The translations under genes and the position numbers were made by a program. The notes beneath the pieces were generated by a model. It saw only the letters and a program-made list of their open reading frames with translations. It was not told the DNA's origin and made no database searches. Positions 29,150 through 57,911 of a stretch of DNA of 64,000 bases are shown here, in pieces (within the stretch, counting starts at the first letter, position 1; each line of letters starts with the position of its first letter). This DNA is from Candidatus Kapaibacterium sp. (GTDB taxonomy: Bacteria > Bacteroidota > Ignavibacteria > Kapaibacteriales > Kapaibacteriaceae). The stretch is from NCBI GenBank assembly GCA_044224925.1, contig JBGAJM010000010.1, forward strand, positions 914 to 64,913, read 5' to 3'.

Positions 29150-29162
29150 GAACGCCTTCGGC

Positions 29163-30214: not shown

Positions 30215-32044
30215 TCATGGAACGCTTTGCAACCAATAGGTCTTCATCATGCCCTTGCCCTTTATGTCGAACGAACCCCTTCGTTGAGTTACAAGTGACA
30301 AGTGATGAGTGACAAGTGGCACTTCGTTGGATTCTGGATTCTCAGATTCCGTGATTGGATTCTGTATTGTGTATTCTGTATTCGCCTTCAATTGAATGGC
30401 AAAGGCTTCGGAAACATGCACCTTGCCCGGCTCCCCGCTCGACTCCATACGTGAAGCAACGTTCACCGTGTCTCCCCAGACGTCGTATTGAAGCCGCTGC
30501 GTGCCGATGACGCCGGCTGTGGCAGGACCGATGTGGATGCCGACGCGAGACTGTAGTGGCGTGCCATCATGCCATGTGAAGGCATGCTGCATGACATCGA
30601 GTGCAACGTGGGCAATGGACTGTGCATTCGTTGTTGCATCGGCATCGCCGCGGAAGCACATGTAGGAGTCACCGATGGTCTTGACCTTGACCACGTTGTG
30701 CGTGTCGCAGAATGCATCGATTGTACGGAAGATATTCTCGAGCATCTTCACCACATCGGAAGGCGGCATGGAGGATGTATGCGAAGTGAAACTCACGATG
30801 TCGAGGAACATCACGGCGGCATATTCGAAGTGGTCGCCGCTGACGTCTTCGCCGCGGATCATGCGGTCGGCAACGGACTTCGGTAGAGCGCCATACAAAA
30901 GAGCACGCTCCTTGTCTCGCTCGCGCCGTTCCCCTTCCATCCTTCGCTCTGCCTCCATGATTGCCATGCGTTGCGTTGTCTCTTTGCCGCGGATCTCTTC
31001 CGTCAGTCGAAGATACTCTGCATTGTGTTCGATGAATCCGGCAAAGTCGTTGCGCTTCTGAGCAAGATCACGAAGAAGATGCCGAACCTCCGCAGAATAC
31101 GCACGCAGGCCGGCATGCATTGTGATCGCCAGTGCTTCCTGAAGATGTTGGTGCGCCGCATCGAGATCACCACGATGTTCGGCAAGGGAGGCACTATTGG
31201 TCTCACGCTGCGTTCGTACTGCAGGATCGTCCATCGGCATGGTGCCTTGAAGCGCCAACAGTTCTTCGGCTACATCGTACCGATCGAGCTTCGCGAGCGT
31301 GGCGATCACATTGCCGATAGCACGAACGATAGCGGCACGGTCACCCTGTTGCTCAAGCATTGCAAGCGAGTGACGGTAGTGGTCCAACGCCGACAGATCG
31401 TCGCCAGTGAACTTGTATAAACTGCCGATGCTGCTTGTGACGTTTGCTACACCGGCATGGTCGCCCAATTCTTCAAACAGTACCTGCGCGAGACGGTAAT
31501 ACTCCAACGCGGTATCATAGTCGCCGGTACTTGTATACACACTGCCGATGCGTTGCGTATTGCGGGCCACACTGTCGCGTTTCCCCAGCTCTTCAAACAC
31601 CGTCTGCGCGCGGAGATAGTGTTCCATCGCCGATGCGTAGTCACCTGTGTTATTGAAGACGATACCAATGTTTCCCGTGACGAGGGCCACACCGACGCGG
31701 TTGCCCAGCTCTTCATGCAGTGACCGCGCACGACCGTAGGACTCCAGCGCAGATGCGAAGTCGCCGATCTTCAAGTAGGCATTGCCGATGCTGGTGGAAA
31801 CACTTGCAACACCGGTACGGTCACCACGCTCATCATGAAACGCCAACACCAGACGGTAATGCTGCAATGCCGACGGGAAGTCTCCGGCGAGTCCCTCGGC
31901 GATACCCAAGGCATAGTGCGCATGAACCTCAGCCTCTGGCGTGCCAAGCGATCGCATCTCCAGCGCCAGCGCCCGAAGCGCCGGAGCATCACTTCGGTTC
32001 TTTGCATGATCGAAGTCTTCTCTCATCTCTTCGAGCGTTCTCAT
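30215..32044 (-). CDS. TPR-repeat + class III adenylyl cyclase domain protein (paralog P1, subfamily B)
   Basis: About 10 TPR-like 40-aa units (IGNAYLKIGDFASALESYGRARSLHEELGNR...). Coiled-coil linker, then cyclase motifs FLDIVSFT, VKTIGDSYMC, YDVWGDTVNVASRMES and a C-terminal FDIKGKGMMKTYWL. Its stop overlaps the P2 start (ATGA). Confidence 0.8.
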   Translation of the reverse strand: MRTLEEMREDFDHAKNRSDAPALRALALEMRSLGTPEAEVHAHYALGIAEGLAGDFPSALQHYRLVLAFHDERGDRTGVASVSTSIGNAYLKIGDFASALESYGRARSLHEELGNRVGVALVTGNIGIVFNNTGDYASAMEHYLRAQTVFEELGKRDSVARNTQRIGSVYTSTGDYDTALEYYRLAQVLFEELGDHAGVANVTSSIGSLYKFTGDDLSALDHYRHSLAMLEQQGDRAAIVRAIGNVIATLAKLDRYDVAEELLALQGTMPMDDPAVRTQRETNSASLAEHRGDLDAAHQHLQEALAITMHAGLRAYSAEVRHLLRDLAQKRNDFAGFIEHNAEYLRLTEEIRGKETTQRMAIMEAERRMEGERRERDKERALLYGALPKSVADRMIRGEDVSGDHFEYAAVMFLDIVSFTSHTSSMPPSDVVKMLENIFRTIDAFCDTHNVVKVKTIGDSYMCFRGDADATTNAQSIAHVALDVMQHAFTWHDGTPLQSRVGIHIGPATAGVIGTQRLQYDVWGDTVNVASRMESSGEPGKVHVSEAFAIQLKANTEYTIQNPITESENPESNEVPLVTHHLSLVTQRRGSFDIKGKGMMKTYWLQSVP

Positions 32045-34218
32045 GAGGCGTGCTCCAGCCAGTAGGTGTTCATTGCACCCTTTCCTTTGATGTCAATCGA
32101 GCCCCTGAGTTGAGTTACAAGTGACGAAGACACTTCGTGCGACACGGAGTGCGACACGTTGTGCGACACGTTGTGCGACACTTCGTGGAGAATTGGATTC
32201 TTGATTGTTGATTGTTGATTCTTCTCCAATTCAATAGCAAATGCTTCGGTCACCTGCACCCGTCCGGCCTCACCGCTGCTCTCCATTCGTGAGGCCACGT
32301 TGACCGTGTCTCCCCACACATCATACTGCATGCGTTCTTTGCCGATCACTCCTGCCGTCACTGGTCCACAGTGCAATCCAATTCGGAATGCCATTTCGTG
32401 GGATACGTTGATGCGCGACATCTCCAACGCACAGAGCGCGGCGTTCACAACACTATCAAACGCTACGGCCATGTAGCTATCCCCGATCGTCTTGATCTTG
32501 GTGACGCCATGCTTGGTGCAGATCGCATCGCATTGTGTGAACACGTTGTCGAGTAGCTCGATCACATCGTGTGATGACATCGACGATGAGATCTCTGTGA
32601 ATCCGACGATGTCGAGGAAGATGACGGCTGCATTGTCGTAGTGGTCGTTCACCACCTCGCCCCTCGCCACCCTATCCGCCACTTCCTTGGGCAGGGTGGA
32701 ATGGAGCACGGCGAGATGCTTCTGGTGCTCGCGATCCTTTGCATCGATCTCGCGTTGCTTGGCTTGCATGGCGAGCTTGGTTGCAGCCTCATTACCGTTG
32801 ATCTCTTCATGTACACGCATGTATGCGTTGTTGTGTTCGACATAGCCCACAAGGTCGTTTCGTTTGAAGGCAAGGTCGCGCAGTTGCTGATGTACGGCTG
32901 CAACGCTTGGACGGAGTCCGTGCTCTTCGGCTATGCGCAATGCATGCATGAGTGTTGCCTGAGCCTGCTCCACATTGCCGGTGCGATCCTGCACCTTCGC
33001 ACGGCAGATCTCTCGCAAGAGTATCTTTGGCGGTCCATCGAGTTCGAGCGTGTCCAACACGCTCAGTGTTTCGGTTGCCGCATCGAGATCACCCATTGCG
33101 AGATGGAGACCCACCAATGCGCACCGTACGCGCGCAATATTGTAACGTTCGCCAAGCTCTTCCCATTCCGTGAGCGCTTGCTCGTAGTGTTCCTTCGCCA
33201 ATGCATGGTTGCCCTGCTGATCGTACACTTCGCCCAGACCGTGCAAGGCACCCGCCAAATGTGAACGCTCACCCAATTGCGCATACATCGTGCGGGCGCG
33301 TTGGTACTGCGCAATGGCAGCAGATCCTTGTCCCGTACGATGGTGGAGGAGGCCGATTCGAAGCAACGTATACGCAATGCCCTTCTGATTGTCGATCTCT
33401 TCGAAGATATCGAGGGCACGCTCGAAATGTTCGAGTGCGGTCGGGTTATCGCCTGTATCGAAATGCAGAACTCCAATGTTCGTCGTCACGAGTGCTACGT
33501 CATACAACTCATTCAGGTCTGCATGTACAGACATTGATCGATGATAGTGTTCAAGAGCTGCAGCCGTGTCGCCGATCGCTGCGTAGACATTGCCGATGTT
33601 CGCAAGACCACGTGCAATGCTCCCTTGGCCACCTTCATCGCCATACATGTCCAACGAGCGTTGAAAGTACTCAAGTGCCGTTCTGTAGTCTCCACGATTG
33701 TAGTAGACGATGCCCATGTTTCCGGTGATCCGCGCAGCAGAAATGCTCCGTCCCTGTTTGACGCTGAGATCGAGTGCCCGCCGGTAGTACGTCATTGCCG
33801 CATCGTAGTCGTTGAGTTCCAGCAGCACATTCCCGAGGTTCCCGCTGGTGCGCGCCACACTATTGAGATCATTCGCCTCTTCGCCTATAGCGAGCGCTCT
33901 CGAATGGTGGTCAAGTGCCGCCGCGTGGTTCCCTGTTCGATGAAGAGCACTCCCGATATTGTCCAACGCGATCGCCATCCCTGTACGATCACCAAGTGTA
34001 TCATAGAGTGCCAGTGCGGCCCGCAGATGTTCGATCGCTTCATGGTACTTATCATGCGAGAGAACGGCCCACCCACGAGCGCGATGCGCCAACGCTTCTG
34101 CGTTCGGTGATTCCAACGCATCGAGCTCCGTTGCAAGGTCGAGCAGCGCTGCTGCATCGTTGTTCCGTGTAGCCGCAAGGACGTCTGCGTCGATATCGTC
34201 AAACGAGCGTTGTGTCAT
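32041..34218 (-). CDS. TPR-repeat + class III adenylyl cyclase protein (paralog P2, subfamily A) with (SHxV)n insert
   Basis: Start moved to MTQRSFDDIDADV (34218). Cyclase motifs FLDIVGFT, IKTIGDSYMAV, YDVWGDTVNVASRMES. Insert HEVSHNVSHNVSHSVSHEVSSS before the final beta-strand. Confidence 0.8.
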   Translation of the reverse strand: MTQRSFDDIDADVLAATRNNDAAALLDLATELDALESPNAEALAHRARGWAVLSHDKYHEAIEHLRAALALYDTLGDRTGMAIALDNIGSALHRTGNHAAALDHHSRALAIGEEANDLNSVARTSGNLGNVLLELNDYDAAMTYYRRALDLSVKQGRSISAARITGNMGIVYYNRGDYRTALEYFQRSLDMYGDEGGQGSIARGLANIGNVYAAIGDTAAALEHYHRSMSVHADLNELYDVALVTTNIGVLHFDTGDNPTALEHFERALDIFEEIDNQKGIAYTLLRIGLLHHRTGQGSAAIAQYQRARTMYAQLGERSHLAGALHGLGEVYDQQGNHALAKEHYEQALTEWEELGERYNIARVRCALVGLHLAMGDLDAATETLSVLDTLELDGPPKILLREICRAKVQDRTGNVEQAQATLMHALRIAEEHGLRPSVAAVHQQLRDLAFKRNDLVGYVEHNNAYMRVHEEINGNEAATKLAMQAKQREIDAKDREHQKHLAVLHSTLPKEVADRVARGEVVNDHYDNAAVIFLDIVGFTEISSSMSSHDVIELLDNVFTQCDAICTKHGVTKIKTIGDSYMAVAFDSVVNAALCALEMSRINVSHEMAFRIGLHCGPVTAGVIGKERMQYDVWGDTVNVASRMESSGEAGRVQVTEAFAIELEKNQQSTIKNPILHEVSHNVSHNVSHSVSHEVSSSLVTQLRGSIDIKGKGAMNTYWLEHAS

Positions 34219-34326
34219 GGAGGAAAGGAGAATGAGAAGTAAGAAAGAAGGAAAAGAGAAGGAAAAAAGAAGGAAAAAAGAAGTACAAAAGAAGTACAAA
34301 AGAAGTGGCACTTCGTGGGACACATG
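34219..34326. repeat. CT-rich (coding-strand) tandem repeats (TTCCTTCTCTTT / TTGTACTTCTTT units) filling the 108-bp gap between the P3 stop and the P2 start
   Basis: Plus strand reads ggaggaaaggagaatgagaagtaagaaagaaggaaaagagaaggaaaaaagaaggaaaaaagaagtacaaaagaagtacaaaagaagtggcac. Homologous to the tract after P6 (44396..44470). Confidence 0.85.
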
Positions 34327-36285
34327 TCACTCTCTTGATTCCAACCAGTAGGTGTTCATCAGACCCTTGCCCTTGATATCGAACGATCCACGCTCGATAG
34401 TGACAAGTGACGAAGACACAGAGTGCGACACCGAGTGCGACACCGAGTGCGATTGTGGATTCTCCGATTCAGTGATTGGATTCTGTATTATGAATTCTGT
34501 ATTCCTCTTCAATTCCGAGGCAAACGCTTCGGATATATGAACCCGCCCGGCCTCGCCCGCCGACTCCATCCGTGAGGCAACGTTGACGGTGTCGCCCCAC
34601 ACATCGTATTGCAACCGCTGCGTGCCGATGACACCGGCTGTTGCGGGACCGAAGTGGATGCCGACTCGGAACAGCAGTGGATCTCCGTTGGGCCATGTGA
34701 ATGCGTGTTGCATGACATCGAGGGCAACGTGGGCAATGGACAACGCATTTGTCGTCGCATCTGCATCGCCGCGGAAGCACATGTAGGAGTCACCGATGGT
34801 CTTGACCTTGACAACGTCCTGCTTGTCACAGAATGCATCGATCGTACGGAAGATGTTCTCCAACATCTTCACCACGTCGGAAGGCGGCATGGAGGAAGTG
34901 TGCGATGTGAAGCCCACAACATCAAGGAACATCACGGCAGCATGATCGAAATGATCGCCGGTCACATCTTCGCCGCGGATCATACGGTCGGCGACAGACT
35001 TCGGAAGCGCTCCATACAGCAACGCGCGCTCCTTGTCTCGCTCCCGCCTTTCACCTTCCATCCTTCGCTCCGCCTCCATCATCGCTAGTCTTTGCGTGGC
35101 CTCTTTGCCGCGGATCTCTTCGGTGATGCGCTGATACTCGTTGTTGTGCTCAATGTAACCGGCGAAGTCATTACGTTTCTGGGCGAGGTCGCGAAGCATT
35201 TTGTGGCACTCTGCGGAATACCCACGTAGGCCGGCCTCGACCGTGATCGCTAGTGCATCAGTTAGGTGTTGATGCGCCGCATCAAGATCCTCCCAGTGTT
35301 CGGCAAAGTTGGCGCTGTTGGCGTGATATTGACACCGAACAACCGGATCATCCATCTGCATGGTGGCCTGACGCTCCAACAGTTCTGCGGCTTCGTCATA
35401 CCGAATGAGGCCCATGAGTGCCGTGACCACATTGCCGGTGGCGCCGGCCATACCGGCGCGGTCGCCTAGTTCTTCGTGCATCGCTAGCGCGCGGCCGTAA
35501 TGCTCCAGCGCTGCCGTATGGTCGCCTCTTGCACGGAATAGATTTCCAATGTTCGAGGTAATGCTGGCCACGCCAGCTCTGTCGCCAACCCCGTCAAGGA
35601 TCGCCATCGCTCGACGGAAGTACTCAAGTGCGGCCGTGCTGTCGTCGGTGCCGTTGTACACGTTCCCAATACCGTTGGTACTGTGGGCCACGCCCACAGG
35701 GTCACCAAGCAATTCATACAATGCCAATGCGCGGCGGTGGTATTCCAGTGCCGCGGGGTAGTCGTCGGTACTGAAGTACACATTGCCAATGCCATTGGTG
35801 ACGCGGGCCACGCCCGCATCGTCGCCAAGCGATAGATGCAATTCCAATGCGCGGCGATACTGTTCCAATGCCGCCGGATAGTCGCCCGTGTTTGTAAGTA
35901 GATTACCGATATTCCCAGTGATAACGGCCACCCCAGCGAGGTCGCCCAACTCTGTGGGCACCTCCAACGCGCGGCGGTAGTGCTCGAGTGCTCTGGCAAA
36001 ATCGCCGATCTTGCGGTACACATTGCCTATGTTGACAGCGATGCGTGCTATCCCTTGACTGTCACCCAGCGCTTCACGCAATGCCATCGCACTGCGGTAA
36101 TGCTCCAATGCTGCAGGGTACTCGCCCCTGATCACTTCGGCAACACCAAGGGTAGTGTGTGCATGCGCCTCTGCGCTCTGTGTACCAAGCGCTTGCATTT
36201 CATGAGCCAGAGCACGTAGCGACTCAGCGTCATGTTTCGTCATTGCATGATCGACATCTTCCTTGATCTCTTCGAGCGTTCTCAC
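34327..36285 (-). CDS. TPR-repeat + class III adenylyl cyclase protein (paralog P3, subfamily B)
   Basis: Starts MRTLEEIKEDVDHAM (compare P1 MRTLEEMRED). Cyclase motifs FLDVVGFT, VKTIGDSYMC, YDVWGDTVNVASRMES. Insert ...ENPQSHSVSHSVSHSVSSSLVT. Confidence 0.8.
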   Translation of the reverse strand: MRTLEEIKEDVDHAMTKHDAESLRALAHEMQALGTQSAEAHAHTTLGVAEVIRGEYPAALEHYRSAMALREALGDSQGIARIAVNIGNVYRKIGDFARALEHYRRALEVPTELGDLAGVAVITGNIGNLLTNTGDYPAALEQYRRALELHLSLGDDAGVARVTNGIGNVYFSTDDYPAALEYHRRALALYELLGDPVGVAHSTNGIGNVYNGTDDSTAALEYFRRAMAILDGVGDRAGVASITSNIGNLFRARGDHTAALEHYGRALAMHEELGDRAGMAGATGNVVTALMGLIRYDEAAELLERQATMQMDDPVVRCQYHANSANFAEHWEDLDAAHQHLTDALAITVEAGLRGYSAECHKMLRDLAQKRNDFAGYIEHNNEYQRITEEIRGKEATQRLAMMEAERRMEGERRERDKERALLYGALPKSVADRMIRGEDVTGDHFDHAAVMFLDVVGFTSHTSSMPPSDVVKMLENIFRTIDAFCDKQDVVKVKTIGDSYMCFRGDADATTNALSIAHVALDVMQHAFTWPNGDPLLFRVGIHFGPATAGVIGTQRLQYDVWGDTVNVASRMESAGEAGRVHISEAFASELKRNTEFIIQNPITESENPQSHSVSHSVSHSVSSSLVTIERGSFDIKGKGLMNTYWLESRE

Positions 36286-38567: not shown

Positions 38568-38655
38568 GGAGGGAAGTTACGAATCAGAGTGACGAGTGAC
38601 GAGTGACAAGTGACACTTCGTGGGTCCTATATTGTTGATCCTTGATCCTTGATCT

Positions 38656-39936
38656 TTGATTCATCTTCCATCCTCCCCCATGATCCTCCGCTCCTTCCTC
38701 CTCCTGCTTGTCGGCGTGGTCGTGCTTGTCGGACGAGCACAGGGTCAGCATTGCACGAACGACCAGCGCTATACCGACGTGGTGACCTTCGATACCGCCC
38801 AGATCACGATCGGCGCGAATGTTCAATACGGCACGGCCAACGATGTGCAAGGGAGTCCGGTGCCGTTGCTCATGGACCTGTACTATCCGAACCTTGCCGT
38901 CGACCCAGTGGCGGCACGACCGATGATCGTGCTCTTTCATGGAGGCGGGTTCTCGTCGGGTGACAAACAGTCGGGCGACATCCGCGACCTCTGCGTGCAT
39001 CTGGCCATGCGCGGCTTTGTGTGTGCATCCGTGAACTATCGGCTCGGACATGACTTCTCGGAGTACGGACAGTACAAGGCGCGGTATCGCGCGATCCAGG
39101 ATGGCCATGCCGCCCTTCGATTCATTGTGCGCAATGCCGCCACCGTCCGCATCGACACGAACTGGCTGTTCGTTGGCGGACAAAGTGCCGGCTCGTTGCT
39201 GGCGCTGGGCATGGTGTATGCGGATCAGAGCGAGCTCGACAGTATATCGCTGCTCTATGGCACGACGGCTGTGAGCGCGGAGTTGGGAGGCTTGCATACG
39301 TCCGGCAATGCACTGACGAATTCGTATTCCATCAAGGGCATCTTCAACAACTGGGGCGGTGTTGTTGCGAGCGAAGTGGATGCGGACGAAATGATCCCCA
39401 CCATTGCCTTTCACGGTGGCCTCGATCCGTTGGTCCCGATCGATGTCGATACGTCGTTCGCACACTGCGCACTGCTTGGCTCGCGAGCGATCCATGCCGA
39501 TCTGATCGCCAACGGCGTGTGCAGCGAGTTGAACGTAGAGGTATCGGGTGGACACGGCATCTATCGCGATGCTGCAAGCGTGTTCAGAGCACAACATGCG
39601 AGCTGCTTCTTCCGCTCGATCTTCTGTGATCGTTGCTCGAGTTTCTCCACCACCGATTCGATCCCTTCATCGTGCTCGTCCCCTGTCCACGTCGACGAGC
39701 AACCGCGCACCACCTCATTCCACATCGACCCCAATCCTTTCGAAAGCATCATGACCATTGGAGGGTTGGAGGGTGGCGCGGAACTCACGGTCTACAACTG
39801 CTTCGGACAAGTGGTCCGCACAGCTCACGTCGGCAATGGCCCCCTTCACCTTGATGTATCGCCGGGTTTGTACATTCTGCACGTACAACCCACGGGAAAC
39901 AGCAGTAGATTCACGAAGGTGGTGGTGAGGCGATGA
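38656..39936 (+). CDS. alpha/beta-hydrolase esterase/lipase with T9SS C-terminal sorting domain
   Basis: Signal peptide; VLFHGGGFSSGD oxyanion motif; nucleophile elbow GGQSAGS; C-terminal Por domain IDPNPFESIMTIGG...LYILHVQPTGNSSRFTKVVVRR. Confidence 0.75.
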   Translation: MIHLPSSPMILRSFLLLLVGVVVLVGRAQGQHCTNDQRYTDVVTFDTAQITIGANVQYGTANDVQGSPVPLLMDLYYPNLAVDPVAARPMIVLFHGGGFSSGDKQSGDIRDLCVHLAMRGFVCASVNYRLGHDFSEYGQYKARYRAIQDGHAALRFIVRNAATVRIDTNWLFVGGQSAGSLLALGMVYADQSELDSISLLYGTTAVSAELGGLHTSGNALTNSYSIKGIFNNWGGVVASEVDADEMIPTIAFHGGLDPLVPIDVDTSFAHCALLGSRAIHADLIANGVCSELNVEVSGGHGIYRDAASVFRAQHASCFFRSIFCDRCSSFSTTDSIPSSCSSPVHVDEQPRTTSFHIDPNPFESIMTIGGLEGGAELTVYNCFGQVVRTAHVGNGPLHLDVSPGLYILHVQPTGNSSRFTKVVVRR

Positions 39937-40190
39937 AGAAGAGGAATACAGAATACACAATACAGAATTCAATCAAAGAATCAAGGAATCAAGAATCACA
40001 CGAAGTGTCGCACAGCGTGTCGCACAGCGTGTCGCACGCCGAAGGCGTTTTCTTCGTGTCGCACTCCGTGTCGCACGAAGTGCCACTTGTCACTCGTCAC
40101 TCGTCACTTGTCACTGTCGAACGAGGATCGTTCGACATCAAAGGCAAAGGCCCCATGCGCACGTATTGGTTGGAAAGGAGCGATCGATGA
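39933..40190 (+). pseudogene. stand-alone 85-aa ORF that is a chimeric C-terminal remnant of a TPR-cyclase gene
   Basis: MKKRNTEYTIQNSIKESRNQESHEVSHSVSHSVSHAEGVFFVSHSVSHEVPLVTRHSSLVTVERGSFDIKGKGPMRTYWLERSDR joins insert-2-type, insert-1-type and terminal beta-strand sequences. Its TGA stop overlaps the P5 ATG exactly as between intact pairs. Confidence 0.6.
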
Positions 40191-44376: not shown

Positions 44377-44395
44377 TACGGCCTGCCACGCAGTG

Positions 44396-44500
44396 CCACT
44401 TCTCTTGTACTTCTTTCTTCCTTCTCTTTTCCTTCTCTTTTCCTTCTCTTTTCCTTCTCTTTTCCTTCTCGTGACTCGTCACTCGTCACTTGTCACTTCC
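44396..44500. repeat. CT-rich 12-nt tandem repeat (TTCCTTCTCTTT x5) followed by 9-mer units (GTGACTCGTCACTCGTCACTTGTCAC), downstream of P6
   Basis: cttctcttgtacttctttcttccttctcttttccttctcttttccttctcttttccttctcttttccttctcgtgactcgtcactcgtcacttgtcac. Homologous to the P3/P2 intergenic tract. Confidence 0.85.
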
Positions 44501-45734: not shown

Positions 45735-45754
45735 GATTCTGCAATCTACGAAAT

Positions 45755-45873
45755 AGTAGCGGCTACTTGCCAACTTATAGTGCGGCTACTTGCCAACTTT
45801 TAGTGCGGCTACTTGTCAACTTTTAGTGCGGCTACTTGCCATCTTTTAGTGCGGCTACTTGCCACTCGTCACT
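45755..45873. repeat. 5 tandem copies of a ~24-bp unit (TAGTGCGGCTACTTGCCAACTTTT), ending in 9-mer units
   Basis: tagtagcggctacttgccaacttatagtgcggctacttgccaacttttagtgcggctacttgccaacttttagtgcggctacttgccatcttttagtgcggctacttgccactcgtcactcgtaactc. The first unit contains the perfect hairpin AGTAGC-G-GCTACT. Lies between the Fic stop and the AAA ATPase start. Confidence 0.85.
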
Positions 45874-45879
45874 CGTAAC

Positions 45880-47076
45880 TCAATTCGCGCCTTCATTCAG
45901 GATGGAGAGATACCGGTGGTATGCAAAGACACGATTGCGCTGCTTCCCGGTGATCTCACGCACGATGCCAAGGCTCGTCAGAACATCGATGGCTTTGCTT
46001 GCTGTCGGGAACGTCATAGCGGCCATCGCACAGATCCGATCGATGGTGACGATAGGACGTGCTTGCAATGCCGAATGCACACGGAGGACGCTGCCGAGAT
46101 TACGGCCATGTAAGCGAATGACTTCACTGTCGGTGTTGAAGCATGTGATGAGTCGCTGTGCGGTGTCGACCGCACCTGCAGAGGTTTGCTCCACGCCCTC
46201 CAGAAAGAACCCTAGCCACTGCTCCCAATCGCCCGTTGTCCGCACATGACCAAGGAGACGGTAGTATTCGGCCCTGTGTTTCTTGAGATACAGACTCAGG
46301 TACAGAAGTGGCTGTCGGAGTACGCGCTCGTGTTGCAAGATCATGGCAATGAGTAGCCGACCAGTTCGCCCGTTCCCGTCGAGGAATGGGTGAATGGTCT
46401 CGAATTGCACGTGTGCCAATGCGGCTTTGACCAGTGTTGGCACATCGTTCCGGTGGATGTACTTCTCAAGGTCCGACATGCACTGTTCTACCACATGGGC
46501 TGGTGGTGGCACGAACTCCGCATTGCCGGGTCGCGTGCCACCGATCCAGTTCTGACTGCGGCGGAATTCACCCGGCATGCGCTCAGAGCCACGTCCACCT
46601 GCCATGAGTCGCTCGTGGATCTCCTTGATCAGTCGATTTGAAAGTGGGAACCCTGCCGCCATTCGGTCAAGGCCATGCTGCATCGCGGCCACGTAGTTCG
46701 AGACCTCGGCCACGTCGTCGAATGGCACGCCCGGCGCTTCGTCGAGTTCAAAGAGCAAAAGATCGGACAGCGAAGACTGCGTCCCCTCGATCTGTGACGA
46801 AAGCACTGCCTCCCGTCGCACGTACGAATACAGGAAGATGCTTGCGTCCGGCAGCAAGGCCGACACGCTATCCAGTCTCCCACATGCCAGGAGCGCACGC
46901 TCCATGGTCCTACTCAAGGCAGCATCCATAAGGATGGGTGGAAAAGGCGGCAAGGCACTGGGCACATAGGCCCGTACTGTTTCACCTCCCACCGTCGTGG
47001 TTTCATATGTTCCGTTTTCTTGGCGGCGCATCGATCCAATGTACGAAAGATCTTTCGTTATTAAAGTAAATGCCAC
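45880..47076 (-). CDS. Fic/DOC family protein (adenylyltransferase-type)
   Basis: Fic motif HPFLDGNGRTGR. About 398 aa, possibly starting at internal Met 16. Confidence 0.8.
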   Translation of the reverse strand: MAFTLITKDLSYIGSMRRQENGTYETTTVGGETVRAYVPSALPPFPPILMDAALSRTMERALLACGRLDSVSALLPDASIFLYSYVRREAVLSSQIEGTQSSLSDLLLFELDEAPGVPFDDVAEVSNYVAAMQHGLDRMAAGFPLSNRLIKEIHERLMAGGRGSERMPGEFRRSQNWIGGTRPGNAEFVPPPAHVVEQCMSDLEKYIHRNDVPTLVKAALAHVQFETIHPFLDGNGRTGRLLIAMILQHERVLRQPLLYLSLYLKKHRAEYYRLLGHVRTTGDWEQWLGFFLEGVEQTSAGAVDTAQRLITCFNTDSEVIRLHGRNLGSVLRVHSALQARPIVTIDRICAMAAMTFPTASKAIDVLTSLGIVREITGKQRNRVFAYHRYLSILNEGAN

Positions 47077-47110
47077 TTTTCTTTAATAGAGAATTCCGCT
47101 ATTAAAGTGG
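47043..47110. promoter_or_regulatory. AT-rich operator-like cluster: a perfect 16-bp palindrome plus three TATTAAAG half-sites in alternating orientation, in the divergent Fic / hypothetical-gene control region
   Basis: ACGAAAGATCTTTCGT at 47043..47058 is perfectly palindromic. It is followed by TTATTAAAGT, CTTTAATAG and CTATTAAAGT; the last two form a 9-bp inverted repeat with a 9-bp spacer. This is the AT-richest spot in a GC-rich region. Confidence 0.5.
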
Positions 47111-48579
47111 TCGTATTTTGCCTCCCTATGCCCCGCCACCCTTCAAACCCCTCGAAACCTGCCAAAACCACTTCAAAAACCCCGTCAAAGGCCTCGCTGA
47201 CAGACCAATTGCGCGAGGTGCCGGTGGATGTGCTGGTCGACCTGATCGAGCGGCATGCCAAGACGGTTCCGGCGCTGAAGCAGGAGATGATGCGGCTGGT
47301 TGGGAACGACAAGACGGTGATCACGGAGATCAAGCGGGCGATCAAGAAGCTCGCGGCGGTGCGACCAAACACGAGGAGTCGACCCAAGGAGATCCAGACG
47401 CAGCTTGTGAGCGTGCTCGAACTGATCAAACATCTGTCCCTCCGACGTCCGCACGAAGCACTGCCCCTCCTCTGCTTGCTCCTCGAAGATGCATCGAATG
47501 TTGCCGGCTCGTTCTCGCAAACAAGTGTTGTGGCAGCGTTCTTCCGTGACACGCTTCCTTCTGCCGGTGCCGATGTGCTCGCGCGTTGCAGTGACCTTGA
47601 TCTCGTCCGCCACGAAGTAGGTCAGGTAATGTTGAAGGATCGATACCGCACAAAGGCTTGGTTCCTGCAAGGCGTTGGTGATGCGCTTCCGGAGGATCTT
47701 GTGGACGAACTGCGTCGCGCCTTCGCTGCACGCATCAAGCATCATACAAGCCCATGGGACGACCTGGAAGATGAAGCCATCCTCTTGCTCAAGGCGCTTG
47801 AATTCTCGGTCGGCGATGTGGTCGGCTATGAGAAGGCAGCAAGGCGGCAAGGCATGCTGCATCGCAGTGATGGGATCGCGCTTGCACAGATGTGCATCGG
47901 TCACGAGGACTATGCCGCGGCCAATGTGTGGTTGGACAAGATCCCGAACGATGTCGACAACCCTGCAGCGCGCGCGATGAACAAGCAACGTGACGCATTG
48001 TATCTCCAGATCGCAACGGCCACGGGAAGCACGGCCCATGCGGCATTGGCGTTCCGTTCGCACATGCTCACGCAACCATCCACGGAGACGATCGCCATGC
48101 TTCGCACGCTTCTCGGTGACGATGGCGCGATGAATGCCGTGCGCGAAGCCGCGCTGCAGCTCGTTGCGAAGGATGACCCTTCACCACGCGTCATGACGTT
48201 TTTCGTGCAGAACGGCTATGATGATGTGATGGAAGAACGCATGTTCGCACCATTGGTTCGTGATGCGATGGCATTTCATCACGAGTGGCAACTCGTCGAG
48301 GCGTTCATCGACAAGATGCGTTTCCACGGTGCCTTGCAGGCATGCCGACATTTCATTACAGATATACTGACCGACTCATACTTCACGATGTATGGCGAGG
48401 CCATCTACGCCATGCAGCTCCAACGAGCACTCGCTCGTGATCGTAAAGACCTGCGAGGTCTCCAAACGGCCGATGCATTCGAGAGCGAACTTCGTCTCGC
48501 GTTCAACAACGAAACCTCTTTCTGGAGAGATCTCGACGTTGCGAGCACACGTCGCTTCCCGGGTTCTCCACTTCTCTGA
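47107..48579 (+). CDS. hypothetical protein (about 483-490 aa)
   Basis: Long ORF of coding composition divergent from the Fic gene. No domain recognised. Start may be Met 8 (47128). Confidence 0.5.
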   Translation: MVVFCLPMPRHPSNPSKPAKTTSKTPSKASLTDQLREVPVDVLVDLIERHAKTVPALKQEMMRLVGNDKTVITEIKRAIKKLAAVRPNTRSRPKEIQTQLVSVLELIKHLSLRRPHEALPLLCLLLEDASNVAGSFSQTSVVAAFFRDTLPSAGADVLARCSDLDLVRHEVGQVMLKDRYRTKAWFLQGVGDALPEDLVDELRRAFAARIKHHTSPWDDLEDEAILLLKALEFSVGDVVGYEKAARRQGMLHRSDGIALAQMCIGHEDYAAANVWLDKIPNDVDNPAARAMNKQRDALYLQIATATGSTAHAALAFRSHMLTQPSTETIAMLRTLLGDDGAMNAVREAALQLVAKDDPSPRVMTFFVQNGYDDVMEERMFAPLVRDAMAFHHEWQLVEAFIDKMRFHGALQACRHFITDILTDSYFTMYGEAIYAMQLQRALARDRKDLRGLQTADAFESELRLAFNNETSFWRDLDVASTRRFPGSPLL

Positions 48580-48648
48580 TCTTCGATTCTGTATTATGTA
48601 TTCTTGATCCTGTATTCTTGATTCTGTATTGATCTTCCCATTCCCCTG

Positions 48649-49197: not shown

Positions 49198-49252
49198 TCG
49201 ATGTGTACTTTCGCGGTATCACGTTACTGCACTGTTCCATGAGGAGGGAATA

Positions 49253-51628: not shown

Positions 51629-51842
51629 TCACATTCACCCATTGAAACACCTCATTGAGCGTTACCCCGAAAACATCGGCAATGCGAAATGCCGTTTCGA
51701 GTGACGGAGAGTACTTGCCTCCTTCAATGGCTGCTATTGTCTGGCGGGTGAGACCTACACGCTCACCGAGATCGGACTGAGACATTTCGTCGTGCTCGAA
51801 ACGCAGTCGGCGGATACAGTTGGTGACCTTGACATCGCTCAT
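51615..51842 (-). CDS. XRE-family (Cro/CI-type) HTH transcriptional regulator
   Basis: 75 aa; LSQSDLGERVGLTRQTIAAIEGGKYSPSLETAFRIADVFGV is a canonical HTH_XRE. Confidence 0.8.
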   Translation of the reverse strand: MSDVKVTNCIRRLRFEHDEMSQSDLGERVGLTRQTIAAIEGGKYSPSLETAFRIADVFGVTLNEVFQWVNVTTEG

Positions 51843-52303
51843 GACCGCTGCTTGTAGTAGTTCCGAACGATGATGGTGTCTCGTACGAGTTCAGAGATGA
51901 ACACGACACAGATGGCATCGTTGACAATGGACCAGCCGTGTTCAATGAATGGCTTGTAGATGCCAACGATGATCATGCCGGTGAGGAGAACAATGTAGCC
52001 GAACCGATAGGACTGTCGCTCGATCATGCTGTCGCGCTCATCCGGGGGTGCCTTGGCTTCGATCGGATACCGCAACCGCAATACGAGATAGCCAAGTCCC
52101 ACGAGCACCGCAAAGGACGACGAAGCGATGCCGTAGATCCACAGCTGCGAGAATCCTGGCATTTGGATCTCAACACCTTGTTGAAATCCGTACACGTAGA
52201 TCAGGTACGGTCCGAGTGATACAACCATGGAAAGCAGCATCATCCATGCAATTCGTTCTCGATAGGCCATTGTTGCCTCCAATACAGATGTTAAGTTTAC
52301 CAT
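51839..52303 (-). CDS. small multi-TM membrane protein (DUF2178-like partner of the XRE regulator)
   Basis: 154 aa with 3-4 hydrophobic helices. Its stop overlaps the HTH gene start by 4 nt, the usual DUF2178/XRE arrangement. Confidence 0.5.
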   Translation of the reverse strand: MVNLTSVLEATMAYRERIAWMMLLSMVVSLGPYLIYVYGFQQGVEIQMPGFSQLWIYGIASSSFAVLVGLGYLVLRLRYPIEAKAPPDERDSMIERQSYRFGYIVLLTGMIIVGIYKPFIEHGWSIVNDAICVVFISELVRDTIIVRNYYKQRS

Positions 52304-52345
52304 ACAATATGCATAAAATACTTAACATACGATCAAGACGACCGC

Positions 52346-54439
52346 TCATGTCGTATCTGCTGAGGTCAACCAGTACGTCCGCATTGGGCCTTTGCCTTTG
52401 ATGTCGACAGACCCCCTTGGGGTAGTGACAAGTGACGAAGACACTTCGTGCGACACTTTGTTCGACACGGAGTGCGACACCGAGTGCGACAATTCGTGAG
52501 ACACGTTGTGCGACACCGAGTGCGACACGTTGTGCGACACGGAGTGCGACACGTTGTGCGACACAGAGTGGGATTGTGGATTCTCTGATTCAGAGATTGA
52601 ATTCTGTATTGTGTATTCTGTATTGCTCTTCAGATTCAAAGCAAACGCCTCGGACACATGCACCCTTCCGGCCTCTCCCGTACTCTCCATCCGTGACGCC
52701 ACGTTGACGGTATCTCCCCACACATCGTATTGCAACCGCTGCGTTCCGATCACGCCGGCCGTCACTGGTCCACAATGCACGCCAATTCGGAAGAGCACTT
52801 CGTGCGACACGGAGTGCGACACGTTGTGCGACACTTCGTGGGACACGGAGTGCGACACTTCGTGGGTAATGCGAACGCGCGACATGTCCAAGGCACAGAG
52901 CGCCGCATTCATGGCGCCGTCGAACGAGACGCACATATAGCTGTCGCCAATGGTCTTGATCTTCGTGACGTTGTGTTGCTCACAGATCGCATCGAACGAC
53001 GTGAAGATCTGCTCGAGGAGCTGCACCACATCGCTGGGCGCCATGCGATCGCTCATTCGGGTAAACCCAACGATGTCGACGAAGATCACCGACGCATTCT
53101 CGTAGTGATCGCCACTGACCTTCTCTCCGCGGATCATGCGGTCGGCCACATGCTTCGGCAGTGCGCCATAGAGCAAGGCGCGTTCCTTCTCACGCTCACG
53201 TCGCTCCCCTTCCACCTTTCGCTCCGCCTCCATCATGGTCATACGTTGCGTGGTCTCTTTGCCACGAACTTCTTCGGTGATGCGCGTGAACTCGTTGTTG
53301 TGTTCGATGTAGGCGGTGAAGTCGTTGCGCTTCTGTGCAAGGTTCCGAAGTCGTTCATGACACAACGCTTCATCCGCCTTGATGCCCGTCTCGGAAGCAA
53401 GGCTGAGTGCCTGTTGCAAGGCGGCAAGGGCAGCATCAAGGTCACCACGTCGTTCGGCTAGAGTGGCACGATTGGCAAGATGGATCACACGCGTTTCAGG
53501 GTCATCCATGAGCATCGTTGCTTGCTCATCAAGAAGCGTTCCAGCCTCCTCATCACGACCAAGCTCGAGCAATGCAAGAACAATGTTCCCGGTCACGGTG
53601 CTCACGCCGGCGCGATCGCCGATCTGCTGATGCAGGTCGCGTGCCCGCCGATGTAGCGCGAGCGCCTCTTCGTACTCGTGCATCATGGCATGAACGAGGC
53701 CCATGTTGGACGTGATGCGCGCTGCATGGGCAATGTCGGCATGCGCTTCGTGCATTGCGAGCGCTCGACGATAGTGGTCAAGCGCCTGATCGTGATCGCC
53801 CGTGCTGTGATAGATGTTGCCAATGTTGCCGGTGACGATAGCGATGCCGCGACGGTTGTCATCCTCTTCATGGATGGCGAGGGCACGACGCAGTAAGGCA
53901 AGTGCTTCCGGATAGTTTCCCGTGCTCCAGTACACGTTTCCTAGATTACTTGCAACGCGCGCCGTGTTAGCGCGATCGCCGAGATCGTCGTGCATCTCAA
54001 GGGATCGATGCAGTTGTTGCATGGCCCGTGGGAAATCGCCCATGCTATCGTGGACCAAGCCGATGTTGCCGGTGACAACAGCAATACCATCGCGATCGCC
54101 GAGTTCCTCGTAGGTGGCAAGGGCACGATGCAGATGTTCCAAGGCCTCGGCATACTGTCCCATACTTGCATGCATGCTCCCAAGCGCTGAGCACGTGCGT
54201 GCGATGGAGCGCCGATCTCCGAGCTCTGAGAACAAGGCCAGAGCCCGACCATGGTGTTGGAGGGAGGCAGGGTAGTCGTGCGTGAAGGAGCAGGCCATGC
54301 CAAGAGCGCGCGCCGCCTGCGCTTCGGCCTCGCGTGTATCGTGCGTCTGCAGTTCCGCGGCCAACGTCGACAAGACAACGGCATCTCTCTTCGCGACAGC
54401 TGCTTCGACGTCGGTGAGGATGTCGGCCAGCGCTCTCAT
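52346..54439 (-). CDS. TPR-repeat + class III adenylyl cyclase protein (paralog P7) with the longest (SH[SNE][VL])n inserts
   Basis: Start moved to MRALADILTDVEAAV (54439) to remove a spurious N-terminal extension. Insert 1 is THEVSHSVSHEVSHNVSHSVSHEV. Insert 2 is about 13 units, QSHSVSHNVSHSVSHNVSHSVSHNVSHELSHSVSHSVSNKVSHEVSSS. Confidence 0.8.
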   Translation of the reverse strand: MRALADILTDVEAAVAKRDAVVLSTLAAELQTHDTREAEAQAARALGMACSFTHDYPASLQHHGRALALFSELGDRRSIARTCSALGSMHASMGQYAEALEHLHRALATYEELGDRDGIAVVTGNIGLVHDSMGDFPRAMQQLHRSLEMHDDLGDRANTARVASNLGNVYWSTGNYPEALALLRRALAIHEEDDNRRGIAIVTGNIGNIYHSTGDHDQALDHYRRALAMHEAHADIAHAARITSNMGLVHAMMHEYEEALALHRRARDLHQQIGDRAGVSTVTGNIVLALLELGRDEEAGTLLDEQATMLMDDPETRVIHLANRATLAERRGDLDAALAALQQALSLASETGIKADEALCHERLRNLAQKRNDFTAYIEHNNEFTRITEEVRGKETTQRMTMMEAERKVEGERREREKERALLYGALPKHVADRMIRGEKVSGDHYENASVIFVDIVGFTRMSDRMAPSDVVQLLEQIFTSFDAICEQHNVTKIKTIGDSYMCVSFDGAMNAALCALDMSRVRITHEVSHSVSHEVSHNVSHSVSHEVLFRIGVHCGPVTAGVIGTQRLQYDVWGDTVNVASRMESTGEAGRVHVSEAFALNLKSNTEYTIQNSISESENPQSHSVSHNVSHSVSHNVSHSVSHNVSHELSHSVSHSVSNKVSHEVSSSLVTTPRGSVDIKGKGPMRTYWLTSADTT

Positions 54440-56556
54440 CTTTCTTCCAGCCAATAGGTATTCATGGGGCCTTTGCCCTTTATGTCGATCAAACCGCGGA
54501 GTTGAGTTACTAGTGACAAGTGACGAGTGACGAGTGGCACTGCGTGCGACACCGAGTGCGACACGGAGTGCGACACGGAGTGCGACACGGTGTGGGATTC
54601 TGGATTGCCGGATTCGGTGATTGGATTCTGTATTGTGTATTCTGTATTGCTCTTCAGATTCAACGCAAACGCTTCGGAGACATGCACCCGCCCTGGCTCC
54701 CCAGTGGACTCCATTCGTGAGGCGACGTTCACCGTATCTCCCCACACATCGTATTGCAATCGTTGCGTTCCGATCACGCCGGCAGTAACAGGCCCACAAT
54801 GCACGCCAATTCTGTATTGCAGCATTCTAGGATTGGATTCTGTATTCTGTATTGTGTATTGTATTCGATTCATCTCCAAGGCGCAGAGTGCTGCGTTTGT
54901 GATGCTGTCGAACGACACGGCCATATAGCTGTCGCCAATTGTCTTGATCTTCGTGACGTGATGCTGTTTGCAGATCGCATCGCATTGCGTGAAGACGTCG
55001 TCGAGGAGTTCGATCACTTCCTGCGACGTCATCGACGACGAGAGATCCGTGAAGCCAACGATATCCAAGAAGATCACGGCTGCATTCTCATAGTGATCGT
55101 TCACCACCTCGCCCCGTGCCACCCTTTCGGCCACCTCTTTGGGAAGGGTGGAATGGAGCACGGCGAGCTGTTTCTCGTGTTGCCGTTCGCGTGCATCGAT
55201 CTCGCGTTGCTTCGCCTGCATTGCGAGCTTCGTGGCGGTCTCCTTCCCGGTGGTCTCTTCCATGATACGCGCATACTCCGTGTTATGCGTTACATAGGCG
55301 GCAAGGTCCTGCCGCGCGAGAGCGAGTTCGCGGAGACGTCGATGAATTTCGATCTGCAGCTCGGGCAAGTGTATGCGCTGGGTGATCTCGAGAGCAGAGT
55401 GGAGCGTCTGTTGCGCCTCATCAATTCGACCGTAGTGTTCATGGAGCGAGGCACGACACAGCTCGATGCTCACCACAACCATGGGACTGTCGGTCTGTGC
55501 TGCATCCAGCGTTGCCAGCAGCATCTCCGCTTCAGAGATCTCGCCGACATGTATCAATACCTCGAGGATGTGACCCTGTAGTCGGAGCACGGCCTCATGT
55601 TCGCCGTGGCGTTGCTTCAGATCCAAGGCTCGACGGAAATGATCGAGTGCTTTTTCTGTTTCGTCTTTCTTTTTGAGTACGATGCCGATATTGGCAAGGA
55701 GCGACGATAGAACGTAGTCGTTCCGTGCGACATGCTCCATTGCCATCACGCGTTCGTAGTGACTGAGAGCCTGGTCATAGTTTCCGGCGGCATTATACAC
55801 GTTCCCGATGTTTGCCAATATTCGGGCAATGCCATCAAGATCGTTCAAAGCCTCATAGATGGCCAACGCGCGATGATAGTGTTCAAGCCCCGTCGGATAG
55901 TCCGCCGTGTGGTAGCAGATGATGCCGATGTTGTTATGGATACCGGCGACACTTCTCGTCATACCGAGGCGATCCGACAGTGCGAGCAGTCGATGGCATG
56001 TCTCCAGTGCATCGGCATACTGACTCGTCGCAATGTAGATGCCTGCGATATTCCCAAGGACAAGGGCAATGCCGTTGTGGTCTTCAGCGCGAGTGAACAG
56101 CTCAAGCGCCTTGTGATGATACTCAAGTGCTTCGCTCGTGGCTCCACAGTTGCTCTTGACGTAGCCGATGCTATTCAAGGTGTGCGCCGTCCCGTTCACA
56201 TCGTCGACGAGTTTAAATTGCTGTAGAGCATCGCTGTAGAGGGCGAGTGCACGCTCATGATCTCCTTGCTCGGAGTGGACCAGGGCGATGTTGCTTATGA
56301 CACTTGCCGTGCCGACAGCATCTCCGAGCTCTTGGTAACGGTCCAAGGAGGCATGAAACAGGTCGAGGGCACGCTCCGCGTAGCCTTGACGATACATATC
56401 CAGGCCGCGCAAGCGCCCGGCAAGCGCCTGTGCCTCGAGCGTTCCGATCTCGTCCAGTTCAACCGCATATTGCTCGAACTTCTCAGCATTCCGAATGCTG
56501 ATGTCGCGCTCGACGTCGGTCTGAATGTCGGCAAATGTTCGTTGTTGCTGTGTCAC
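54436..56556 (-). CDS. TPR-repeat + class III adenylyl cyclase protein (paralog P8, subfamily A)
   Basis: Its stop overlaps the P7 start (ATGA). Insert site 1 carries the other module type (IQYTIQNTESNPRMLQYRIGVHCGP). Site 2 is ESHTVSHSVSHSVSHSVSHAVPLVTRHLSLVTQLRG. Confidence 0.8.
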   Translation of the reverse strand: MTQQQRTFADIQTDVERDISIRNAEKFEQYAVELDEIGTLEAQALAGRLRGLDMYRQGYAERALDLFHASLDRYQELGDAVGTASVISNIALVHSEQGDHERALALYSDALQQFKLVDDVNGTAHTLNSIGYVKSNCGATSEALEYHHKALELFTRAEDHNGIALVLGNIAGIYIATSQYADALETCHRLLALSDRLGMTRSVAGIHNNIGIICYHTADYPTGLEHYHRALAIYEALNDLDGIARILANIGNVYNAAGNYDQALSHYERVMAMEHVARNDYVLSSLLANIGIVLKKKDETEKALDHFRRALDLKQRHGEHEAVLRLQGHILEVLIHVGEISEAEMLLATLDAAQTDSPMVVVSIELCRASLHEHYGRIDEAQQTLHSALEITQRIHLPELQIEIHRRLRELALARQDLAAYVTHNTEYARIMEETTGKETATKLAMQAKQREIDARERQHEKQLAVLHSTLPKEVAERVARGEVVNDHYENAAVIFLDIVGFTDLSSSMTSQEVIELLDDVFTQCDAICKQHHVTKIKTIGDSYMAVSFDSITNAALCALEMNRIQYTIQNTESNPRMLQYRIGVHCGPVTAGVIGTQRLQYDVWGDTVNVASRMESTGEPGRVHVSEAFALNLKSNTEYTIQNPITESGNPESHTVSHSVSHSVSHSVSHAVPLVTRHLSLVTQLRGLIDIKGKGPMNTYWLEER

Positions 56557-57823: not shown

Positions 57824-57911
57824 CGGAGGGTGGTGCAGAATTCGTTCCGAATTCTGTATTCTTGATGCTTGATGCTTGCGACATCCTCCCATTTTCTTCC
57901 CTTGCTATTCT

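Follow-up and report, generated by a model that had tools for sequence, protein, structure and literature searches.

Eight genes for predicted tetratricopeptide repeat-linked class III adenylate cyclases, with overlapping junctions and in-frame tandem repeats, in a Candidatus Kapaibacterium genome

Results

Cyclase genes and their catalytic domains

The DNA analysed in this work (hereafter the window) is a 64,000-nt stretch from Candidatus Kapaibacterium sp. (contig JBGAJM010000010.1, positions 914-64,913), and all coordinates given below are window positions. The region 30215-56556 contains eight long intact open reading frames (ORFs), named P1 to P8, each coding for a tetratricopeptide repeat (TPR) region and a class III cyclase domain (Table 1). 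The Pfam analysis revealed TPR_12/TPR_1 matches in the eight proteins (TPR_12 E-values from 1e-30 to 1e-55) and one Guanylate_cyc match (PF00211) apiece, with E-values from 3e-45 to 9e-52 and scores of 155-176 bits against a cut-off of 21.9. The eight TPR-cyclase paralogs described in an original prediction, which had been made from the sequence alone, are thus real. The start of P2 is likelier to be the ATG at 34218, which lines up with the starts of the other paralogs, than the GTG at 34323 where the public protein model (760 aa) begins; this GTG lies within the repeat spacer between P3 and P2, and the 35 extra hydrophobic residues of the public model correspond to the pyrimidine 11-mer repeat of that spacer (34219-34323).

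A motif scan has revealed that the catalytic set is intact in the eight proteins, confirming what had been proposed for the metal-binding, adenine-specifying and Asn/Arg residues. Both metal-binding Asp (the FxDxVxFT Asp of strand beta1, FxDIxGFT, and that of KTIGD; D536 and D580 in P4), the adenine-recognising pair formed by the KTIGD Lys and the YDVWG Asp (K576 and D654), the transition-state Asn and Arg of NVASRMES (NxxxR; N661 and R665) and the triphosphate-binding Lys of KGKG (K747) were present in all of them, and the loss of catalytic residues in one partner that would characterise a pseudo-cyclase was looked for in all eight and not found. From these residues, the predicted base specificity is adenylate, and not guanylate or pyrimidine. 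The closest PDB sequences were both halves of the mammalian cyclases AC9, AC8 and AC5, M. intracellulare Cya and Rv1625c, with 5o5k and 4p2f among the top matches, and the C-terminal part of the P4 structural model matched 5o5l, Rv1625c and GC-A in a Foldseek comparison, that is, bacterial and animal class III cyclases. Because the nearest solved structures are those of Rv1625c and the mammalian membrane cyclases, P1 to P8 are predicted to be class IIIa-type adenylate cyclases that are catalytically complete by their residues.

Bacterial class III cyclases form their catalytic centre by homodimerising, and up to 30 cyclase isozymes are found in single strains (PMC9552081). By analogy with this family, a head-to-tail dimer with the active sites at the interface would be expected (PMC9552081). 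Since all eight proteins keep every catalytic residue, each of them could form a two-site homodimer, and homodimers would be sufficient.

TPR modules, signalling helix and transducer element

The number of regular 40-residue TPR units is six in P1, seven in P3, P5 and P7, eight in P6 and P8 and nine in P2 and P4, with three flanking helix pairs in addition; the TPR modules that had been anticipated were therefore found, but not their uniform number of about ten units. In the AlphaFold2 monomer model of P4 (predicted local distance difference test, pLDDT, 88.5), 24 TPR-type paired helices are followed by a long helix at 476-508, a short one at 511-518 and the cyclase fold; a continuous helix runs from the TPR region to the cyclase, and there is no membrane segment. 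Residues ~1-390 of this model best matched the TPR domain of LGN/Pins (Foldseek E 8e-13; template modelling score to the target 0.54-0.62; ~19% sequence identity). The TPR module is modelled in a sensor position, joined to the cyclase via a signalling helix and a cyclase transducer element (CTE), a conserved 19-residue unit required in signal transfer (PMC9552081), and the superhelix of 9-12 helix pairs is probably a peptide- or protein-binding sensor.

Two types of helix and CTE are present. Type A (DRVARGEVVN...YMAV; P2, P4, P5, P6 and P8) has the CTE centre STLP within LxSTLPKxVAxRV, and type B (DRMIRGE.V[ST]G...YMC; P1, P3 and P7) has GALP within LYGALPKxVAxRM. The A-type gene is upstream of a B-type gene in three of the four gene pairs of the window, the remaining pair being A-A. 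Scoring both helix types by heptads and charges was considered and dropped, as the register is ambiguous since core positions are polar.

Gene junctions and a ninth cyclase element

The original prediction held that the genes form four pairs that overlap by ATGA. A 4-nt overlap was indeed found at four out of four same-strand neighbour junctions, but its sequence is ATGA in only two of them (P2/P1 and P8/P7), whereas P4/P3 and P5/P6 overlap by GTGA and the downstream genes start with GTG. The GTG start of P6 is kept in its ortholog from SZAS-90 (L083). The run P4-P3-P2-P1, of which P4 is the first gene, may be one four-gene unit, because the P4-P3 and P2-P1 pairs are on the same strand and about 105 nt apart; a sequence homologous to the P3/P2 spacer is located downstream of P6 (44377-44497). 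The 4-nt overlap also occurs at four or more other gene junctions of the window (at least four) and is therefore part of the common operon grammar of this genome, not peculiar to the cyclases. From these overlaps co-expression by translational coupling is plausible, and they would probably provide coupled co-expression without defining enzyme pairs. Scans for sigma-70 promoters and intrinsic terminators between 29 and 58 kb gave counts no better than those of shuffled sequence, so that operon limits could not be set.

A ninth element, a 3' remnant that corresponds to the last quarter of the cyclase domain, is located directly after the stop codon of an esterase gene and is joined by ATGA both to this stop and to the start of P5. 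Its counterpart in SZAS-90 (20313-20579), flanked by the esterase and the P6 ortholog, is decayed by a frameshift. When other pseudogenes were searched by tblastn with the eight proteins against the masked window, solely the remnant at 39933-40190 was found. The tblastn matches at 26.4 and 29.2 kb were repeats alone and not pseudogenes, and an extension of the remnant back into the esterase gene was rejected because the similarity was too weak. The esterase-remnant-cyclase arrangement is kept in SZAS-90 and the esterase-cyclase adjacency is kept in the related locus L001.

Gene chains and partners in related genomes

Protein searches yielded hundreds of homologs, nearly all of them from metagenome-assembled genomes of Kapaibacterium, Ignavibacteria or 'Bacteroidetes bacterium', and single contigs of these relatives carry many paralogs: one contig of 262 kb has at least 12, and several further contigs have 4 to 7. 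Cyclase chains joined by 4-nt overlaps comprise three genes in L006, four in L007 and six in SZAS-90, the latter count taking in the ATGA start of the last gene, and overlapping pairs were found in L001, L002, L011, L012 and L084. Overall, overlapping junctions number 19 (15 ATGA and 4 GTGA), versus 18 same-strand neighbours without overlap.

The P1 ortholog of L001 sits behind a gene whose TPR region is unrelated to that of P2, the P7 ortholog of SZAS-90 sits behind a B-type gene other than P8, and the P6 ortholog (L083 18237-20312; TPR region 88% identical) is preceded by the remnant alone. The P5 ortholog, P0011, is located inside the six-gene chain of SZAS-90, in which the order of types is B-B-B-A-B-B. 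A-A neighbours are present in L002, B-B, A-A and B-A junctions were all found among joined neighbours, and B-type proteins occur in many genomes. The original prediction had taken the pairs for dedicated heterodimers; the tests of heterodimer membership failed, with no complementary catalytic loss and with different neighbours of the P1, P6 and P7 orthologs in L001 and L083, and the proposal was set aside in view of the chains of three, four and six genes, the swapped partners and the arbitrary A/B composition.

The gene order is syntenic with two independent assemblies. The window order is beta-lactamase, P8-P7, ... Fic ..., P6, P5, remnant, esterase, P4-P1, and that of SZAS-90 is beta-lactamase, g1-g6, ... 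Fic, P6 ortholog, remnant, esterase; L001 agrees with the window on the esterase, P4 ... P1 side.

Histories of the gene modules

Trees were built for the separate modules (44 taxa, 40 bootstraps each). The tree of the signalling helix plus CTE recovered a B clan in 33/40 bootstraps, and the A/B split was absent from both the N-half and the C-half of the cyclase (0/40 each). The subfamilies A and B that had been proposed are thus real as motifs but confined to the signalling helix and CTE, and the phylogeny of the catalytic domains, which had been suggested as a check of the split, gives it no support. The TPR trees paired window genes with orthologs from other genomes (P5-P0011, P4-P0001, P7-P0079 and P1-P0097, each in 40/40), and the cyclase C-half trees clustered by genome (P7+P8 in 31/40, P4+P6 in 32/40). 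The C-halves of the paralogs are 84-95% identical (95% at the protein level for P7 vs P8), A and B helix/CTE regions share 50-59% nucleotide identity, and the TPR regions are the fast-diverging part of the genes. In P5 and its ortholog the helix is of type A, although their TPR region belongs to a clade whose other members have type B.

The tail of the window remnant is nearest to the tail of SZAS-90 g3 (81%), the gene upstream of the P5 ortholog, and the tail of window P5 is nearest to the remnant upstream of the P6 ortholog in SZAS-90 (78%), compared with 72% for its own ortholog g4. A terminal WLEQx-GTGAGAGG junction is common to the tails compared. These similarities indicate that the last part of the upstream ORF and the stop/start overlap travel with the downstream gene.

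In-frame tandem repeats in the catalytic domain

In two loops of the catalytic domain, the coding sequence consists of short tandem repeats with units of 7, 8 and 12 nt, which are read in frame. All eight genes, as well as the remnant, contain insert 2; its layout is (GAATACA)x3, AATCnnnG units, (GTGTCGCACnnn)n and (GTCACTY)n, the encoded peptide is NTEYTIQN..SES.NP.SH(xVSH)n..SSLVT, and the final heptamers of the insert code for part of the strand that precedes RGxxDIKGKG. Insert 1 consists of 12-mer units in P4 to P7, with a mini hairpin in P4 and P5, and of a heptamer module in P8; the same site lacks a repeat array in P1 and P3, which have the native loop, and in P2, which has a 7-residue loop (INVSHEM) with a single VSHE unit. 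Both inserts are disordered in the P4 model, and residues 693-732 of insert 2 show a pLDDT <50.

Third-position identity in the cassette is 0.67-0.90, versus 0.3-0.55 elsewhere, and is the highest of the gene, above that of the catalytic motifs. The heptamer arrays have 2-5 imperfect copies per gene, and both module type and copy number vary between orthologs (P5 vs P0011 and P4 vs P0001). Despite the 7- and 8-nt units the frame is open in the eight genes, and therefore the C-terminal KGKG strand is under selection. Intergenic DNA from 26 to 63 kb contains the same repeat families, whether the spacer separates divergent, convergent or tandem genes, but the defence island at 1-26 kb lacks them; among these arrays are (GTGTCGCACTCC)x13 (29159-29317) and ~18 copies of GTCACTY (56640-56766). 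The mini hairpin closes an intergenic 12-mer array and is also present in the remnant, and insert 1 of P4 and P5 reads it as SHAEGV(I/L)P. An exact search of metagenome contigs with the heptamer cassette (GAATACAGAATACACAATACAGAAT) gave three matches, all of them AT-rich non-coding chance matches in unrelated DNA, and no Rfam match was obtained over the whole window at gathering thresholds. Recombination substrate, hypervariable loop and regulatory element are possibilities for the role of the repeats.

In the more distant Ignavibacteria genome L084, the cyclase genes are flanked by own 7-/8-nt arrays (8043-8192, 11813-12071, 14002-14056, 16164-16287 and 21955-22039), and a different in-frame 12-mer (CTCAACGAGGCG, read LNEA) occurs at the same two catalytic-domain sites.

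Neighbouring genes

The remaining features of the window are included in Table 1. The left part (1-27771) is a defence island without the repeat families found further right. A 23-nt direct repeat (TAGTGCGGCTACTTGCCAACTTT) with 4.8 copies is located at 45754-45864, between the start of a DUF4143 ATPase gene and the stop of the Fic gene. At 45880-48579 the Fic-domain gene lies beside a 490-aa ORF without Pfam match, whose L001 counterpart has a faint DUF6880 match; Fic and this ORF keep their synteny with the cyclase arrays as a pair in L001, and in L083 the Fic gene does so by itself. The type IX sorting domain detected in the neighbourhood fits an organism of the Fibrobacteres-Chlorobi-Bacteroidetes (FCB) group.

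Table 1. Positions of the cyclase genes, repeats and other features in the window. RM, restriction-modification.
Feature	Position	Strand	Description
P1	30215-32044	-	Shortest TPR (6 regular units), type B helix/CTE, cyclase; ATG in ATGA overlap with P2 stop
P2	32041-34218	-	TPR, type A helix/CTE, cyclase
P3/P2 spacer	34219-34326	-	One 12-mer unit, then pyrimidine 11-mer tandem repeat
P3	34327-36285	-	TPR, type B helix/CTE, cyclase; GTG start in GTGA overlap with P4 stop
P4	36282-38567	-	TPR aa 1-443, signalling helix and CTE type A aa 444-522, class IIIa cyclase aa 523-761
Cyclase 3' remnant (ninth element)	39933-40190	+	84-codon open frame; repeat cassette and final strands (...RGSFDIKGKGPMRTYWLE)
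P5	40187-42259	+	TPR of the P1/P3/P7 clade, yet type A helix/CTE; cyclase
P6	42256-44376	+	TPR, type A helix/CTE, cyclase; GTG start in GTGA overlap with P5 stop
P7	52346-54439	-	TPR, type B helix/CTE, cyclase; ATG in ATGA overlap with P8 stop
P8	54436-56556	-	Most divergent TPR (<=32% identity to other paralogs), type A helix/CTE, cyclase
Insert 2, P4	36360-36512	-	Example cassette
Insert 2, other genes	30293-30388, 32119-32226, 34405-34509, 41996-42184, 44158-44298, 52430-52630, 54511-54654		
Insert 1, P4	36678-36761	-	Between helix alpha3 and RIGxH strand; 12-mer repeats and mini hairpin ACGCC-GAA-GGCGT
Insert 1 equivalents	41747-41830 (P5), 43936-43992 (P6), 52796-52876 (P7), 54817-54864 (P8)		Heptamer type in P8
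Intergenic arrays	26418-26483, 29159-29317, 38587-38660, 44399-44497, 45863-45881, 48572-48630, 56640-56766, 57798-57878, 62790-62842		7-, 11- and 12-nt families
Mini hairpin	29152-29164 (-), 40036-40048 (+), inside P4 (~36700) and P5 (~41800)		ACGCC-GAA-GGCGT, T-rich tail
Defence island	1-27771		Type I RM (HsdR N-terminal part, HsdS, HsdM); OLD/DUF2813 ATPase and UvrD-like helicase split in two ORFs (Gabija-like pair); IrrE/M78 and DUF4411; VWA protein; Mrr; PDC-M27/Zac-like trio (PLD and SNF2 helicase); ASCH; AbiEii
Esterase (BD-FAE/Abhydrolase_3)	38656-39936		Tail resembles sorting domain by eye, no Pfam match
SBBP beta-propeller protein	49175-51628		Matches type IX secretion C-terminal sorting domain (Por_Secre_tail)

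Discussion

The most probable explanation of the cyclase array is a tandem gene family that is specific to this lineage and recombines. Its products would be soluble, TPR-gated class IIIa adenylate cyclases able to act as homodimers, and each junction would move along with the gene downstream of it. As in the rest of the family, two chains would dimerise through the helix and the catalytic domains, with two ATP sites at the interface, and the binding of a ligand to the TPR region would alter the geometry of the helix and CTE, thus gating the synthesis of cyclic AMP (cAMP). The paralogs differ mainly in their TPR sensor while the output domain is homogenised, so that differently tuned inputs could converge on one second messenger. 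The stop/start overlap is probably a property of the duplication/recombination unit: with crossovers in the conserved 3' half or in the repeat cassette, the end of one ORF would move together with its junction and the gene that follows. Pairs, chains and orphan remnants would all arise from this co-moving unit, and no function specific to pairs would be needed to explain them.

Several points weigh against this interpretation. The tail similarities are modest (78% vs 72-74% over ~96 nt) and come from one genome pair. No long near-identical tracts were found between paralogs, the longest exact shared run being 54 nt and mostly inside repeats, and any gene conversion is therefore not recent. That the neighbours P7 and P8 have the most similar C-halves could equally be due to co-evolution of the interface. 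Activity, dimer state, ligand and operon structure are aspects that we infer. Finally, repeat copy numbers should be taken with caution, since they may be collapsed in this metagenome-type short-read assembly.

A further proposal, which we regard as tentative and rather doubtful, is that the cassette is a nucleotide-level crossover site that moves whole TPR-sensor genes keeping the coupled junction, with copy-number changes giving rise to two hypervariable catalytic loops. If this were true, the arrays would amount to an inherent mechanism that shuffles and diversifies the sensor modules while the cAMP output stays constant, and the intergenic repeats would be its footprints. A stronger role for the cassette as the functional core, either as a 7-nt slippage switch for the cyclases and downstream translation or as a nucleotide-level regulatory or recombination signal, seems distinctly unlikely. 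It would agree with the third-position identity of the cassette, with the presence of the same repeat families in intergenic DNA and with the variable module type and copy number of the orthologs, and a change of one heptamer unit would be expected to delete the KGKG strand; however, 2-5 imperfect copies per gene are a poor slippage substrate, the eight genes are in frame, the sole frameshifted copy seen is the SZAS-90 remnant, and the repeats have no Rfam match. An assembly artefact or a set of decaying pseudogenes is barely credible: although the source is metagenome-like, and repeated paralogs and tandem repeats assemble poorly, the ORFs are long and open with their motifs all intact, chimeric joins are unlikely with no exact paralog run above 54 nt, and the locus is syntenic with two independent assemblies.

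With regard to the dimers, it is very unlikely that each overlapping pair makes the two halves of one enzyme, typically an A and a B chain supplied 1:1 by translational coupling. Such an arrangement would fit the A-then-B order of three of the four window pairs and the location of the A/B difference in the helix and CTE, the element that pairs in the dimer, as well as the old age of this split, found in many genomes; in addition, mammalian cyclases employ two different CTEs (PMC9552081), and duplicated neighbouring cyclase genes turned into an obligate heterodimer in the chytrid NeoR/RGC system (PMC10622942). Nevertheless, the NeoR cyclase is inactive alone (PMC10622942), whereas no complementary catalytic loss was observed among the window proteins, and the chains of three, four and six genes, the partners of P1, P6 and P7 swapped in close relatives, the occurrence of B-B, A-A and B-A junctions and the A-type helix of P5 and its ortholog all argue against fixed pairs. 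Promiscuous dimers, formed by co-translational mixing of near-identical catalytic domains translated from one mRNA and integrating two TPR inputs without fixed partners, are unlikely. The 84-95% identity of the C-halves, with interface residues common to the paralogs, and the closeness of P7 and P8 favour them, and coupled translation would bring nascent neighbours together, but most window neighbours have unlike helix/CTE regions, which would probably make a regular coiled coil less favourable, and no sequence feature demands mixing. As for a function of the TPR-cyclases as diversified immune sensors that resemble STAND/Avs proteins with TPR or the Pycsar cyclases and signal infection through a cyclic nucleotide, it is suggested by the adjoining defence island (type I RM, OLD plus UvrD, Mrr, the PDC-M27-like trio and AbiEii), by a PLD, SNF2, ASCH and HsdM block that lies beside the array in L002 too, by the fast divergence of the TPR regions and by weak PADLOC matches to the PycC model (E 1e-13 to 1e-15). 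This function is highly improbable, as those matches are far below the Pfam class III match and are expected of any PF00211 domain, the specificity residues are the adenine Lys/Asp pair, no gene for a cyclic nucleoside monophosphate (cNMP)-binding, TIR or pore effector was found beside any cyclase, and ordinary chromosomal genes with the TPR-cyclase architecture are widespread among Bacteroidota.

The recombining family of homodimer-competent cyclases that we favour bears on cAMP signalling in the uncultured Kapaibacterium/Ignavibacteria lineage, where it is unstudied, and a dozen or more TPR-gated cyclases per genome would imply many inputs and one messenger. A stop/start overlap between paralogs of a dimeric enzyme is by itself no sign of heterodimers, because the junction is inherited with the recombination unit, as judged from the two related genomes compared. 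In-frame repeats within a catalytic domain, conserved more as DNA than as protein and shared with intergenic DNA, constitute an unusual gene structure.

Comparison with known systems

Duplicated class III domains are also found in NeoR/RGC, whose genes are neighbours, in the mammalian C1/C2 cyclases and in the alpha/beta soluble guanylate cyclase (sGC). Mammalian C1/C2 and sGC contain degenerate sites. In contrast to these systems, in which one chain or site is defective, the window chains are all complete and their partners are not conserved. Rv0386 has its TPR region after the cyclase, together with ATPase and helix-turn-helix (HTH) modules. Proteins of this mycobacterial type and Roseiflexus A7NMN0, with a terminal TPR, also combine a class III cyclase with TPR (PMC9552081), but the TPR follows the cyclase in them, whereas in the window proteins it precedes the signalling helix, the position of a sensor. 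The TPR superhelix at the N-terminus of P4 is similar in fold (~19% identity) to that of LGN/Pins, and the groove of LGN binds extended peptides.

Pycsar PycC has a homologous PF00211-type fold and gave weak model matches, with a score far under that of Pfam class III; unlike Pycsar, the window cyclases have adenine-type residues and no adjoining effector gene. No Pycsar effector (cNMP-activated TIR or membrane protein) was found beside the cyclases in the window, L001, L002, L083 or L084, no cNMP-binding effector gene was found in the window, and PADLOC gave nothing for the window cyclases beyond the weak PycC and generic TPR matches.

TPR-cyclase proteins with the same order of domains and 24-46% identity are present in Bacteroidota (Flavobacterium, Chitinophagaceae, Saprospiraceae, Ignavibacteria and Kapaibacterium), and among 596 pattern matches listed from species-representative genomes the TPR-then-cyclase order was confirmed in 593 (at least 593). 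These are mostly single genes, whereas 4-nt chains and repeat loops were seen only in Kapaibacterium/Ignavibacteria-like relatives. The literature search yielded no experimental characterisation of the Bacteroidota TPR-cyclases and nothing specific on TPR class III heterodimers or Kapabacteria cyclases.

The best catalytic-domain matches, both in sequence and in fold, are Rv1625c/Cya and the mammalian membrane cyclases, which have the six catalytic residues and the Lys of KGKG in common with the window proteins, together with a helical region with a CTE (xSxLP-type centre) just before the catalytic domain. In contrast to them, the window proteins are soluble by prediction, with an N-terminal TPR superhelix in place of the six-transmembrane anchor, their catalytic domain is broken by two long repeat-encoded disordered loops, and their genes form overlapping tandem chains. 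The enzymology of this family is ordinary and well founded, and the dynamics of the array and the repeat-encoded loops are the new part.

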